This document shows, piece by piece, positions 10,560-59,953 of a DNA stretch of 64,000 nt. The notes beneath the pieces are model-generated. The model worked only from the letters and a program-made list of their open reading frames with translations, had not been told where the DNA came from and did not search any database. A program made the position numbers and the translations under genes. Numbering within the stretch: the stretch's first letter is position 1; every line of letters starts with the position of its first letter. Source of the DNA: Candidatus Nomurabacteria bacterium (lineage in GTDB: Bacteria; Patescibacteriota; Saccharimonadia; Saccharimonadales; HK-STAS-PATE-42); the NCBI GenBank assembly GCA_023898665.1, contig CP060233.1, forward strand, positions 548,368-612,367, in the 5' to 3' direction.

Positions 10560-11586
10560 CTATTGCCTCAATCCCACTGCTTTTTGGACTTTTAATAGAG
10601 TTTGATTAGCAATCTCTCTCATCTGCTCTTCTGATTCCTCTAGTTTTTCTTTAAGCTTAGTTTCATCCACATTTTTATAGGCTTCTTGAAGCTCTGTTAA
10701 AGTTTTTTCGACTGCATTGGCGACTCTTTTTTTTGAGTTCGCCATATTGAGTTTGGCCAACAAACTCTTGGTTAATATCTTCTTGAGGTCTTCCTTCAAG
10801 TAATGCCAGCAGCACTAGAAGGTTTGTAATGCCTGGCTGATTTACTTTGTCGAAGTTTATTTTTCCTACGCTATCAGTTGTCGCAGACATAATCTTTTTG
10901 GCTGCAGCTTTAGGATCATCTGAAAGTAGAATTGTTCCGTTTGGATCTTTTACTGACTTACTCATCTTCTTTTCTGGGTTTGTTAAACTCATAATACGTA
11001 CTTGCTCTTGTTGTCCCACAAACCTAGCTTGCTCTTGAATTGGGGCTGGGATTACAAAAATTTCACCAAACTTGTTATTAAATCTTTCAGCAATATCTCT
11101 CGTTAGCTCAACGTGCTGACGCTGATCGTCGCCAAGCGGCACATAGGTCGGTCCATACAGCAATATGTCGGCCGCCATCAAGACAGGGTAATCAAATAGG
11201 CCTACAGAAACAAATTCTGTATCACCTCGCGATGCCTTGTCTTTGAATTCAACCATTCTTGTTAGTACGCCATAGCTAGTTAAGTTGTTCAAGATTACAC
11301 ATAGTTCGGAATGTGCAGGGATTCGACTTTGCCTATAAAGATTAAAGTCCGGATCTTCAATGGGCACTCCCGCGGCTACAAACATCCTGATGTTCTTCAT
11401 TACTGAGTCATAAAGTTTGGAGTGGTCTATTGGCGTCGTGAATGAATGAAGGTCTGGTAAAAACATTTGAAACTTATATTTTCGGGATAATTTATTCACC
11501 ATTCTGACCATTGGTTCAATCCCACCTAAATAGTTACCAATGGTTAGCTCGTCATTGGCCCTCAGGCCCGTTAAAACTTTTTGCAT
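10560..11586 (-). pseudogene. trpS: Tryptophan--tRNA ligase, reading frame broken at an A8/T8 homopolymer
   Basis: The class I core lies in ORF 10675-11586. After the T8 run at 10726-10733, the product ...QYGELKKK continues in the +1 frame as RVANAVEKTLTELQEAYKNV..., the canonical TrpRS C-terminus. An A7 run would restore the frame. Confidence 0.85.
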
Positions 11587-11615
11587 GATATTTTTCCTTT
11601 TCTTGTTAAATTTGA

Positions 11616-12464
11616 TTATACAGTAGAAGTGCTATTGGCTAGAATGAGGGGAACAGGAGAAAGGCCACTTTTAAGTTTAGACCCGTGTTTGTCACCATCG
11701 TTTAATAAACTAGTAATTTGGCTCTGATCAAATACTACAACTGCTGTGCAAGTTCCATCTGGTTTAGAATGCTTCGCCCTAATTAGCTCTCCTACTGCTA
11801 GCATTTCAGCAAAAGAGTTCTTTAGTACTCTCTCCGCTAATGTCATGGGGTCAATATTTATTCCTCTCCCAGCTAACCTTCCTCCAGTGCCAGCCCTCTC
11901 ATACTCCAGAAGTGTCGACAGTCTTCTATCTATGTTTCTTCCATTCACTAGCTCGAAACTTATCTTTACCTTTTCTCTAAGTACTTTGTAAAAATGATCT
12001 ACTAGCTCCATAAACTCGGACTTGCCACCAGCTTCTGTGAAGAACGTTGAGGTAGTTACTTTAGGATACTTCACCGCTATTCTCTCTTGGGAAGTACAGA
12101 TAGCTTCCAAAAAGTGCTCAGGGTCTTTTATCTTGCCCTCATGTGTTACCTCTGAGTCTGCCAGCAGTATTTTGATTTCTGCGTCAGGCAGAACATCCGA
12201 AATCATATTTATTCTTTGTTGAGTCTTTAAGGGTATATTACCATTCACTTGGTCCGTTATAGTGTCATCTTTATGATGTTGAATATAATCGGGGCAACTT
12301 AGCACATAAACCACTATTGCCTCGCCAACACTAGCTGATCTCTCGATTATCTTGGCATGTTTTTGACTTATTGTGTAGCTAGAATCGCCAAAGTAACCTC
12401 CCTGAAGGCATTATCGGAACTTCGTAATTATCAATTCTTTCTTTTGTATCTATAAAACTTTCCA
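11616..12464 (-). pseudogene. Hypothetical protein immediately upstream of trpS, interrupted by an in-frame TAA
   Basis: ATG at 12464 with an aaggaaa RBS. The reading is MESFIDTKERIDNYEFR, then TAA at 12411-12413, then the same frame continues CLQGGYFGDSSYTISQKH... to 11616. The gap to trpS is 29 nt. Confidence 0.4.
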
Positions 12465-12498
12465 TATTATTTTCCTTTTCTTATTAAATTTTTTGGAT

Positions 12499-12530
12499 AT
12501 AAAAAACCTCCGGAGTAAGTAGCGGAGGTT
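12499..12530 (-). terminator. Intrinsic terminator after the RND/membrane-protein operon
   Basis: 8-bp stem aacctccg/cggaggtt at 12505-12530, followed on the minus strand by TTTTTT. Confidence 0.6.
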
Positions 12531-58090: not shown

Positions 58091-58106
58091 AAGATTATTT
58101 TAATAT

Positions 58107-59133
58107 TTAAAACTGTTTTAGGAACTTAAGCTTAGCGCTATGGAATAGGCGGACATCTTCAATACCATACTTCATCATGATTAATCTTTCGATACCACAT
58201 CCAAATGCAAAGCCTGAATATTGTTTTGAATCTATACCTGCCATTTCTATAACATTTGGATGGATCATTCCGCAACCGAGGAGCTCAATCCAGCCTGATT
58301 GTGAGCAAATGTGGCATCCTTTTTTATCGCAGAACGGGCAAGAAAGAGCAAACTCAAAACTTGGTTCTGTAAACGGGAAGTAAAATGGATTAATTCGAGT
58401 TTCAACCTCTTTGCCGTAGTATGCAGAAAGAAAAGTCTTAAGTGTGGCTATTAAGTTGCCGACATTTACATCTTTATCGACATAAATTCCTTCGACTTGG
58501 TAGAAAGTATGCTCGTGCCGAGCATCGACGTCCTCATTTCTATAAACTCTATCTGGCACCGCTGCAGCGATTGGTAATCCAAGCTTCAGACTGTCTTTTC
58601 TTAAGCTTAAGATTCTGTTTTGCATCGTAGAAGTATGTGCTGGTGCTACTAGTTCTTCTTCTGTTACAAAAGTATCGTAGTCGTCTCTGGCGGGATGATC
58701 TTCTGGGAAGTTAAGAAGTAAACATGTGCCATGCATCATCAATATTTCTAGATTCAAATATTTCAAATCCAATTGAGTTAAATATTTCAGAAACTTTTTC
58801 GATTTCTTTTGAGAAATCGGATGGACACTTCCATCAGCATTCTAATAAAATCTGGTAGAGGAAGCATTGACATCAAATGGAGCGGTAACATCTATTGATT
58901 TAAGTTTAGATGAGGAATGTTTTTTAGAATCTTCTTTAACTTTAGCCTCGAGCTCATCTTTTAATTTATTAATAGCTATGCCTAAATCTTTTTTGCTCAG
59001 GGCTACTTTTGGTAGAAGAGCATAAAGTGCCTTAAGCTTAGGAGATTTTAGAATGCGAGATTTATCATCTAGCTCAATAAACTCCTCGTTCAAGGAGCTC
59101 ACGAACTTTTTCGATTTCTTTTTTATAATCCAT
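58107..59133 (-). pseudogene. pheS: Phenylalanine--tRNA ligase alpha subunit carrying at least four lesions
   Basis: The catalytic core is intact from LNFPEDHPARDDYDTF onward. Upstream there are two compensating frameshifts, near 58807-58810 and 58710-58720. They put HPISQ-KEIEKVSEIFNSIGFEIFESRNIDDAWHMFTS out of frame. An in-frame TAG lies at 58842-58844. A further frameshift near 59100 separates MDYKKEIEKV from SSLNEEFIELDD. Confidence 0.85.
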
Positions 59134-59456
59134 TTTATTTATCTCTTAGCTATTATTTTACAACAAAAAAGATGCTGATTTGTGCTAAAATAGCATCTAT
59201 ATGGAATCAGCGTTTAATATTTTAGTAGTTATTTTAAGTGTCTTTCTAGCAATCTTCTTAATTCTTTGGATATTAGTACTTCTTTACGCATGGAAAATAG
59301 CTCGAGCCGCTAAAAATTAAGTTCAAAAGCTGAAGCAAGCATTAATGATGCTCAGTCTTTTATTAACAGCGCTAAAAGATGCTGTAGTTCCTGCAGTTGC
59401 AGCCAAACTCCTAGCTAAAACTATCAAAAACTTTACCAACAAAAGCAAAGTAAAAG

Positions 59457-59953
59457 TTAAAAAGAAGTAGATATTTCTAATTTAGCTCTCTCTAGTATAT
59501 CCGACTCATTTATATCAGAGATTTCTCGTTCCTTATAAATGCTTTCCATTATTTGGATTCCTTTATCTAAATTTAGCCATTTTATCTGGCTAGAAGACTC
59601 AGGATCATTCTTTAATCTACTTTTTTCATCTATATCTTTTAACCGAACTAAGAAATAAAGAGTAGTTTTCTGAATACTAATTCCTTTCGACTTGTAAGAC
59701 GTCTCTTTCGAGCCAATAAAATTGAGATAATTTCCCAACTAGCACCAAACTCTTCCATGAGACCTCTAACTAAAGATTCTTCCAATCTTCGCCGTCTTCT
59801 ACAGATTCTCTCATCAATATACAAACCTCTCCCCCTATTACTGGAGCATCAACAAAATAATGACAAGCTACTTCATTCTTATCATTTAACAAAACAGCGC
59901 CTACTGATAGGTGGTAAGGGTGGTCTGATCTTCCTTGAAAGTAATTTTTTCAT
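59457..59953 (-). pseudogene. NUDIX hydrolase broken by at least three frameshifts
   Basis: The Nudix box is spread over frames: GAVLLNDKNEVACHYF...GEVCILMRESVEDGE, then LEESLVRGLMEEFGAS, then GNYLNFIGSKETSYKSKGISIQKTTLYFLVRL. Confidence 0.55.

Follow-up and report, generated by a model that had tools for sequence, protein, structure and literature searches.

Frameshifts in three synthetase genes of a circular Saccharimonadales genome are very probably errors of uncorrected long-read consensus

Pseudogenes accumulate in genomes that are reduced or host-dependent, such as those of Mycobacterium leprae and of recent insect symbionts. Frameshifts at poly(A) tracts in endosymbionts can be rescued by transcriptional slippage, prfB and dnaX contain programmed frameshifts, and some lineages of the candidate phyla radiation use an altered genetic code. 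Watson and Warr, in Nat Biotechnol in 2019, reportedly found that indels in Nanopore and PacBio consensus sequences split genes and inflate pseudogene counts. When Unicycler is used for assembly, dead ends of the short-read graph are filled directly with raw long-read consensus (PMC5481147).

We analysed a stretch of 64,000 nucleotides, hereafter the window, that forms part of HK-STAS-PATE-42, a circular metagenome-assembled genome (MAG) of 692,464 bp. The organism belongs to Saccharimonadales, family UBA7683, and was deposited under the name 'Candidatus Nomurabacteria bacterium' with locus tags of the form H6799_. The deposited protein USN97854.1 (H6799_03400) has an exact coding sequence in the window, its lesion-specific N-terminus included. 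The supplement to PMC8518188 lists a circular MAG of 692,464 bp and names Unicycler v0.4.8-beta as its assembler, a program able to insert long-read consensus. According to that paper, the MAG was built per bin by running Unicycler on Illumina and Nanopore reads (about 87% accuracy); the published workflow began with Flye contigs and proceeded through several rounds of re-assembly, and the methods describe the final sequences as Unicycler outputs resting on the short-read graph (PMC8518188).

As a comparison set we used independent metagenome contigs that are 98-100% identical to the window and cover 33,166 bp, or 52%, of it. Reading frames were analysed by three-frame translation and by tblastn with intact orthologues, and all genes that the original prediction had named as broken were found to be split across frames. 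Runs SRR12358675/6 and samples SAMN08389275/6 were assigned to the authors' BioProjects by accession ranges and sequence identity, not by metadata. Contig L104, to which a protein clustering with the PheS fragment had led, comes from another species (73-75% DNA identity). A scan of a genome collection with PheS gave a best match of 82% identity and was used for outgroups and synteny only, and a metagenome scan with TrpS returned relatives at no more than 60% identity. Exact-sequence look-ups of the broken TrpS fragment, the 288-aa ORF (12667-13533), PheT, the 164-aa ORF and the 95-aa ORF came back empty; evidently the collection queried does not index the window's contig by gene, and some of these ORFs are altered by lesions or strain differences.

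The lesions are indeed clustered in three patches, as had been proposed: 39 of the 40 indel events fall within 5,065 bp of the 33,166 bp compared (binomial P of about 5e-31, for patches delimited post hoc), namely in patch A (10083-10735) and in patches B and C (Table 1). These tracts are sharply bounded by error-free flanks regardless of composition, and homopolymers are no denser inside them (6.3-12.3 runs of at least five per kb in the patches versus 7.6 outside). None of the 39 indels was found in any other contig compared. Nine genes are broken (trpS, hisS, pheS and the genes for an LD-carboxypeptidase, a 227-aa protein of unknown function, a TPR protein, a sigma-like protein, an 89-aa membrane protein and a NUDIX hydrolase), and for each of them 3 to 9 independent assemblies have an intact copy. 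Because all nine genes are intact in independent, near-identical assemblies that represent the same strain or species, we call the lesions artefacts, and we hold with high confidence that they are assembly errors from uncorrected long-read consensus in a hybrid Nanopore/Illumina assembly, not biology. Comparison of orthologous loci in sister genomes, a check suggested at the outset, was decisive. Genes that had been reported as intact were so: dnaE, fusA, tuf, pheT and obg are as long here as in independent contigs, and the RND gene and uvrC have unbroken Pfam matches. The lesion counts given for individual genes (two in the LD-carboxypeptidase gene and two in the TPR gene, for example) were too low in both patches B and C, and Table 1 lists the revised counts.

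Table 1. Features and lesions of the window (positions in the window; lesions by position within each feature)
Feature	Position	Strand	Lesions and intact counterparts
Patch A lesion 1	10083..10085	.	Intergenic GC hairpin; CCC>TC, one base lost and one changed
trpS	10560..11586	-	Extra C at 10735, minus strand CT[C]AAAAAAAA; last ~55 codons shifted
232-aa ORF, function unassigned	11616..12413	-	TAA 12411-12413 bounds the ORF upstream
Patch B	38674..41848	.	3,175-bp error tract; 21 deletion events, 25 bases, no insertions
hisS	38038..39205	-	2 single-base deletions, ~38954 and ~38674; intact (389 aa) in six independent contigs
Peptidase_S66 (LD-carboxypeptidase) gene	39206..40068	-	4 deletions, ~39634, 39390, 39241, 39216; intact (288 aa) in L013 and L015
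Unknown-function gene	40056..40732	-	6 deletions, ~40678, 40582, 40570, 40365, 40334, 40132; intact (227 aa) in L013 and L015
Intergenic spacer upstream of 227-aa gene	40809, 40763, 40746		3 deletions
TPR gene	40926..41661	-	3 deletions: ~41652 TT, 41602 A, 41032 2 nt; intact (246 aa) in L007 and L013
Sigma-like gene	41664..42334	-	3 deletions: T6>T5 ~41848, CTCT>CT ~41819, C5>C4 ~41748; intact (224 aa) in seven contigs
Natural strain-variable tract	58572..60372	.	Alleles A2 (L105, L191-194) and A3 (L189, L190); ~13% of sites differ
Patch C	58714..59950	.	1,237-bp error tract; 16 indel events, both directions (+/-1, +/-2)
pheS	58107..59134	-	9 indel events: +1 59091; -1/-2 59001/58993; +1/+1/-2 58862-58838; +2 58808; -2 58714; intact (342 aa) in L105-L107
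Spacer before pheS	~59165		One +1
89-aa membrane ORF	59201..59470	+	+1 (~59373), -1 (~59316), short A/T runs; intact in L105, L106, L189, L190
NUDIX hydrolase gene	59457..59953	-	5 events: +1 59950, -1 ~59788, cluster 59722-59741 net +2; intact (164 aa) in L189 and L190

The deletions of patch B are mostly contractions of homopolymers or dinucleotides (T6>5, T7>5, A7>6, A6>5, C5>4, CTCT>CT, ACAC>AC), and they strike genes and intergenic spacers alike, 3 of the 21 being intergenic. The flanks, 2.9 kb at 35811-38673 and 11.4 kb at 41849-53226, contain zero indels. An error spectrum of the long-read type, in coding as well as non-coding sequence, was found both here and in patch C; the earlier statement that indels run in both directions is true of patch C but not of patch B. 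Within the TPR gene there are also natural strain-variable tracts, at 40878-41389. A same-strain comparison is provided by two short-read contigs, L009 and L010 (SRR12358675 and SRR12358676), which match the window over 2.1-2.2 kb with 0 substitutions and differ from it only by 7 bases at 5 sites that are absent from the window. We take these contigs to derive from short reads of the same plant, as indicated by accession ranges.

These observations bear directly on the possibility of genuine ongoing decay, in which the strain truly gained frameshifts in trpS, hisS, pheS and their neighbours. The genome is small (0.69 Mb) and its owner is probably an episymbiotic member of the Saccharimonadales, as decay would have it, but contigs with no substitutions, placed in the same plant by accession ranges, are intact throughout their part of patch B, and the 21 deletions came without accompanying substitutions or insertions and struck spacers like genes. 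The lesions moreover end abruptly at the patch borders, while homopolymers are equally frequent outside. The three synthetase genes are single-copy within the window, and their products are indispensable to the cell. It speaks for decay that the case for artefacts compares contigs, not reads, and that none of the contigs compared at trpS and in patch C demonstrably combines the window's allele with its strain or sample; purifying selection, however, is still visible in the substitutions described below. Taken together, we regard decay as very improbable.

In patch C the errors coincide with allelic variation. No indels occur at 59951-64000 on one side, and a single one (55032) occurs at 54963-58713 on the other. 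The GenBank annotation of PheS is the 236-aa 'hypothetical protein' USN97854.1, encoded exactly at 58110-58817; in the NUDIX gene, the +1 at 59950 lies in an A-run directly after the ATG, and a match to PF00293 is obtained only after the frame of the protein has been corrected. From 59058 to 60090, alleles A2 and A3 alternate along the window in 49 blocks. Where the two alleles differ, the window has the A2 base at 76 sites, all of them within this interval, and the A3 base at 97, of which 63 lie within it, and only 6-8 bases in the allele comparison are unique to the window. Both alleles are present in short-read data that accession ranges assign to the same plant, and a 38.9-kb short-read contig ends exactly at the allele boundary at 60341. 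Patch C thus appears to be a consensus of two strains.

We also considered whether the window's sequence in patch C could be a natural 'backbone' allele. This is disfavoured by its near-zero private branch and by an outgroup test of limited power, in which outgroup states were not enriched in the window (35-56%, with outgroups 66-74% identical and counts that are non-independent).

Substitutions in patch C favour the third position of codons, with pheS having 7, 4 and 33 at the first, second and third positions, which indicates that the genes evolved under constraint. There are 30 synonymous and 14 non-synonymous substitutions in pheS and 13 and 0 in the 89-aa ORF, and hence not the non-synonymous excess of relaxed selection that decay predicts. 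We propose that the tract at 58.6-60.4 kb, comprising the 5' part of pheS, the 89-aa membrane ORF, the NUDIX gene and the 95-aa ORF, is a natural hot spot, at which alleles diverged by about 13% coexist in one treatment plant on a remaining background that is more than 99.9% identical. Both the hot spot and this coexistence are much more likely to be real than the genuine trpS lesion considered below.

How uncorrected consensus came to stand in these places can be reconstructed from the design of the pipeline. Most of the sequence would derive from the Illumina assembly graph and be essentially error-free; at dead ends in that graph, Unicycler would have inserted long-read consensus, and typical Nanopore errors would have been kept. 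Because the rest of the sequence comes from short reads, the errors are local, limited to about 8% of the compared sequence, and not genome-wide. The dead ends behind two of the patches may coincide with tracts in which co-occurring strains differ. In patch B, contractions of homopolymers and dinucleotide repeats would have been left in the inserted consensus, and in patch C reads of two co-occurring alleles may have been merged into one, giving the fine mosaic together with insertions and deletions. The patches thus probably correspond to Unicycler long-read bridges.

We note one observation that counts against this account: L009 and L010, from runs taken to be the project's own Illumina data, are correct at 41228-41848, yet five deletions outlasted polishing there.

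Patch A contains two events only, at 10083-85 and 10735. At the first, an intergenic hairpin reads CCCGGCATGCGCCGGG in five other assemblies versus ..TCGGCATGCGCCGGG in the window, and the error creates a spurious 164-aa ORF (10064-10558) where 146 aa are called in other assemblies. The second, the extra C in trpS, abuts an A8/T8 run, and the A8 run itself, where the original prediction had placed the break, is unchanged. Once its frame is corrected, the window's TrpS is 100% identical to an intact 341-aa TrpS (P0121) that is present in assemblies from NCBI, JGI, ENA and Logan (at the 5 loci listed, with 7 contigs covered). The origin of patch A is less clear than that of patches B and C, as its two errors are isolated and without a strain-variable tract.

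An in-frame TAA at 12411-12413 had also been counted as a lesion of patch A, and this we rejected. The region is identical in an independent assembly (L102), the same frame is full of stops upstream, and the only homologue clusters of the 232-aa ORF (232, 192 and 156 aa) begin downstream of the TAA. The idea that a genuine frameshift joins on an upstream ORF of 22 codons was rejected on the same grounds, L102 being identical and no longer homologue existing.

The patches could also be artefacts of another step, as remnants of the initial Flye long-read contigs or mis-corrections by a polisher instead of Unicycler bridges. The workflow did start from Flye contigs and pass through several re-assembly rounds, and neither the inserted C in trpS nor the CCC>TC change in the hairpin resembles a simple homopolymer contraction; the methods, however, give the final sequences as Unicycler outputs on the short-read graph, and long clean flanks around sharply bounded tracts are what long-read bridges predict. 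We consider such an origin unlikely. There is also a slim chance that at least one lesion is genuine in the assembled strain, the best candidate being the trpS insertion that abuts the A8 run. Were it real, functional TrpS could be recovered through A-run slippage of the kind suggested for some endosymbionts.

More generally, the frames might truly be broken and expression rescued by transcriptional slippage, programmed frameshifting, or readthrough or reassignment of stops (e.g. UGA as Gly). Several lesions do lie at A/T runs of 5-8, including the insertion beside the trpS A8 run, and the organism belongs to the candidate phyla radiation, in which, as mentioned above, the code is altered in some lineages. 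We found instead that the lesion sites are not conserved and that the frames are uninterrupted in all near-identical assemblies; that single genes have as many as 9 lesions, some of them 2-nt indels and some outside any run, and not the one conserved slippery site per gene of a programmed frameshift or slippage; and that hundreds of other codons in the window are normal under code 11. The stops fare no better. The TGA of the sigma-like gene (41837-41839) lies within 27 nt that are out of frame, flanked by a -1 and a -2 deletion, and the intact orthologue has no TGA at this site; the TAG of pheS is likewise out of frame, inside the +1/+1/-2 cluster at 58862-58838. Both had been read as point nonsense codons and are by-products of paired indels. 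Since, in addition, the third stop is not in a gene, the earlier argument that the nonsense codons are not homopolymer errors fails. Reassignment of UGA (code 4 or 25) was rejected, as the single TGA is out of frame and the other genes read through with code 11. Rescue of any kind therefore strikes us as extremely remote.

Among the explanations first offered, localised poor consensus is thus the one that stands, through uncorrected long-read consensus and, in patch C, strain mixing, whereas decay and slippage or readthrough are strongly disfavoured. The broken genes hold no new biology. They nevertheless show that local error tracts stand in a GenBank genome described as complete and circular, where they disrupt three essential synthetase genes together with six neighbours, and conclusions about lost genes, pseudogene load, auxotrophy or recoding in candidate-phyla bacteria would mislead if drawn from such hybrid MAGs. 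A cheap diagnostic is to check suspicious loci against short-read contigs from the same population, and the signature is recognisable: sharply bounded indel tracts at strain-variable regions, sometimes with a two-allele mosaic.

Set beside known systems, the locus resembles slippage and the programmed frameshifts of prfB and dnaX in having indels at A/T runs in essential genes, but here short runs (mostly 2-7) are involved, lesions come several to a gene, and they are not conserved and lack slippery-site signals. Like the pseudogenes of reduced genomes, it has numerous frameshifts and premature stops and belongs to a small AT-rich genome; unlike them, the lesions are missing from same-strain assemblies, fall in essential single-copy synthetases and come with no substitution excess or signature of relaxed selection. 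The likeness to long-read indel errors lies in frameshifts in homopolymers and short repeats, a deletion bias and truncated proteins, although in long-read assemblies such errors are genome-wide, as opposed to about 8% of the compared sequence here. Compared with the Unicycler long-read bridges (Wick et al. 2017, PMC5481147), the input here was a metagenomic bin with at least two strains, patch C looks like a collapsed consensus of two alleles and we infer bridge membership, but as in those bridges, bounded stretches of lower accuracy lie within Illumina-grade sequence.

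Three-frame translation of the minus strand bore out the gene breaks of the original prediction, including its statement that three of the four aminoacyl-tRNA synthetase genes in the window (trpS, hisS, pheS and pheT) are broken. TrpS is read through 303 codons in one frame and past the K-run in another, and HisS is spread across three frames. Four genes upstream of hisS, encoding Peptidase_S66 (LD-carboxypeptidase), a product of unknown function, a TPR protein and a sigma-like protein, are in pieces; the same holds for pheS, a NUDIX gene and a small membrane ORF. The NUDIX gene was identified (PF00293, 38.9 bits) from the frame-corrected protein only; its three separate pieces gave no individual match in the domain search. 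Elsewhere the ORF map is unbroken, and nearly all Pfam matches across the window span both ends of the domain model, none resembling a split gene.

To compare orthologous loci, we collected more than 30 short contigs from unrelated metagenome assemblies (ENA, JGI, NCBI and Logan) by exact-protein look-up from EF-Tu, MiaA, YebC and intact HisS, TrpS and PheS relatives. These contigs (numbered with L below) share 97.2-100% identity with the window and jointly cover 33,166 bp, or 52% of it; the other 48% was assessed by ORF and domain integrity only. Every gene broken in the window is intact in them (see table), and the window's TrpS after frame correction is 100% identical to the intact protein P0121. 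Thirty-nine of 40 indel events fall inside the three patches, in 5,065 of the 33,166 comparable bp, a rate of 1 per 130 bp against 1 per 28 kb elsewhere (binomial P ~5e-31, with patch limits set post hoc); the post hoc limits notwithstanding, the contrast is overwhelming. Because homopolymers of at least 5 are similarly frequent outside (7.6 per kb) and inside the patches (6.3-12.3 per kb), composition does not explain them.

Features of the window, with the intact products found in independent contigs
Feature	Position (strand)	Intact product elsewhere	Observation in the window
GC-rich segment	1-5400		43-46% GC vs ~37% elsewhere
Large serine recombinase	2335-3606		Resolvase, Recombinase and Zn ribbon
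Aldehyde dehydrogenase	3699-5075
tRNA-Gln	5309-5383		Adjoins aldehyde dehydrogenase
Patch A	10083-10735		Two events
GC hairpin, intergenic	10083-85		CCC>TC
trpS	10735 (event)	341 aa (5 loci shown, 7 contigs read)	Additional C directly before A8 run; A8 unaltered
Span without called gene	12315-12666		350 bp; 28-codon ORF behind strong AAGGA ribosome-binding motif
Heliorhodopsin	22359-23120 (-)		Full length; PF18761, E 8e-99, profile positions 1-242 of 242
Patch B	38674-41848		25 bases missing at 21 sites
hisS		389 aa (6 contigs)	2 deletions
Peptidase_S66		288 aa	4 deletions
Gene of unknown function		227 aa	6 deletions
TPR gene	40878-41389 (substitution tracts)	246 aa	3 deletions
Sigma-like gene		224 aa (7 contigs)	3 deletions
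dnaE cluster	44532-44556		Five substitutions in 25 bp
Three small ORFs	49486-50327 (-)		91, 77 and 99 aa, between fusA and tuf
Spacer upstream of HSP20 gene	55032	156 aa	+1 base; apparent ORF of 169 aa
USN97854.1 (H6799_03400)	58110-58817		GenBank-annotated PheS fragment
Strain-variable tract	58572-60372
Patch C	58714-59950		16 indel events
pheS		342 aa
Membrane ORF		89 aa
NUDIX gene		164 aa
Substitution cluster	61962, 61964, 61977		TTTTTT...TAGTT vs CTCTTT...TATTT

Against L013-L018 and L003-L010, patch B contains deletions and no genuine insertion, and no indels are present at 35811-38673 or 41849-53226. The deletions are mainly homopolymer contractions (T6>5, T7>5, A7>6, A6>5, C5>4 and others) together with contractions of the dinucleotide repeats CTCT and ACAC; three lie in the spacer between the TPR gene and the gene of unknown function, and the lesions therefore ignore coding status. 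The decisive comparison is with L009 (SRR12358675) and L010 (SRR12358676), which show 0 substitutions relative to the window across 2.1-2.2 kb while the window is short of 7 bases at 5 sites. Genuine gene decay is contradicted by this intact sequence in the same strain, by a deletion-only, substitution-free spectrum that strikes spacers as well as genes, by the retained signature of purifying selection, and by the synthetases being single-copy and essential. At 41228-41848 the errors survived polishing although correct short-read contigs exist there. The TPR gene also carries contiguous strain-specific substitution tracts, with 36 differing sites in 40878-41287 in L007 and L013 (24 synonymous and 12 non-synonymous in L013) and 11 in 41314-41389 in L015, which look like recombination imports.

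Patch A differs by only two events from five contigs that are 99.9% identical across 6639-13350. The intergenic event yields a spurious long ORF of 164 aa, against 146 aa called in the others. The TAA at 12411-12413, originally counted as a lesion, is not one: the region is identical in L102, with an identical 232-aa ORF called; stops abound upstream in the same frame; and all three homologue clusters of that ORF (232, 192 and 156 aa, the only ones in an exhaustive profile-free search) begin downstream of it. In the +1 frame, the nearby 28-codon ORF overlaps sequence upstream of the 232-aa gene; its span is identical in L102 and yielded no homologue in support of a longer gene.

Nor do the other two supposed nonsense codons stand as such. 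The TGA of the sigma-like gene falls within 27 nt bounded by a -1 deletion and a -2 deletion, where the intact protein reads GPVFCMISEERRTLHEDI and the window GPVFV*FQKREELHEDI, and the pheS TAG is located within a +1/+1/-2 cluster. That both internal stops lie within out-of-frame stretches contradicts expression through slippage, programmed frameshifting or stop reassignment, as do the lack of conservation of the sites in near-identical genomes and the load of as many as nine lesions in a single gene, 2-nt indels among them.

In patch C insertions and deletions both occur, +2 and -2 events among them (against L105-L107 and L189-L194); four events recur against both reference alleles and are therefore window-specific. 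No indels occur at 59951-64000, and the one at 54963-58713 is intergenic (55032). The patch is enclosed by a natural hypervariable tract with at least two alleles, A2 (L105, L191-L194) and A3 (L189, L190), which differ at ~13% of sites, mostly synonymously, between flanks more than 99.9% identical. The tract spans 5' pheS, the membrane ORF, the NUDIX gene, an 88/95-aa ORF and the 3' end of radC; in the sister species L108, L109 and L104 the NUDIX gene is absent at the matching position. Substitutions (30 synonymous and 14 non-synonymous in pheS, 13 and 0 in the membrane ORF) show a third-codon-position bias and are thus true allelic differences rather than errors.

The window is a fine mosaic of the two alleles: of the sites that distinguish them, 76 carry the A2 base, every one inside 59058-60090, and 97 the A3 base, 63 of which lie in that interval; private bases number only 6-8. 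Within 59058-60090 it switches between alleles in 49 blocks averaging ~21 bp, which is implausible as a product of recombination. A natural lineage with so near-zero a private branch should show ancestral states, yet only 35-56% of informative sites in the window share the state of three outgroup species, in a test of limited power. L189 (SAMN08389276) carries A3, and the 38.9-kb L188 (SRR12358676) carries A2 bases and ends at 60341, the exact allele boundary. Judging from accession ranges and identity, SRR12358675/6 and SAMN08389275/6 belong to the genome authors' BioProjects, and both alleles appear to be present in short-read data from the same treatment plant. The most economical interpretation is a consensus into which long reads from two strains were collapsed.

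Outside the patches, the extra base at 55032 (relative to L105 and L107) may be an error or strain variation. The three window-unique substitutions at 61962-61977, in 16 bp, set the window apart from nine independent contigs (among them L188 and L189, probably from the same treatment plant) and give a 322-aa ORF N286 and K291 instead of K286 and E291; they may reflect an error in the consensus or a variant from a minor strain. The dnaE cluster distinguishes L003, L004 and L006 from L001, L002 and the window itself and resembles a micro-recombination tract between strains. The three small ORFs, without a Pfam match, are an unusual insertion in the str-operon region; they are called in 5 of 5 independent contigs, and L001 and L002, which span them completely, are 100% identical to the window. 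The GC-rich segment is probably an integrated mobile element.

The source genome, HK-STAS-PATE-42, is a single circular contig of 692,464 bp with 38.4% GC, from a member of the Saccharimonadales (family UBA7683) at 0.088% relative abundance in Shatin activated sludge (Liu et al. 2021, Microbiome 9:205, PMC8518188, and supplement). Its GenBank name, "Candidatus Nomurabacteria bacterium", is at odds with every line of homology evidence and with the GTDB placement given by the authors (Saccharimonadia; Saccharimonadales; UBA7683). Nanopore reads of 86.7% mean accuracy were assembled with Flye, and each bin was then re-assembled with Unicycler v0.4.8-beta and Illumina reads "to bridge the gaps" (PMC8518188). 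The original prediction was largely right that the breaks are clustered; the feature, however, is not biological, and the lesions are errors introduced locally in the assembly of a public MAG labelled "complete". One consequence is USN97854.1, which is encoded exactly at its tabulated position and includes an out-of-frame N-terminus present solely owing to the lesions.

The patches are probably Unicycler bridges, at which long-read consensus fills dead ends of the short-read graph. Strain-variable regions are a natural cause of such dead ends, and patches B and C both include such regions; patch A is without one, and its two errors are both atypical. Unicycler bridging predicts Illumina-grade sequence broken by sharply bounded tracts of long-read consensus errors, exactly the pattern observed. 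The finding serves mainly as a caution and provides an error signature that can be recognised.
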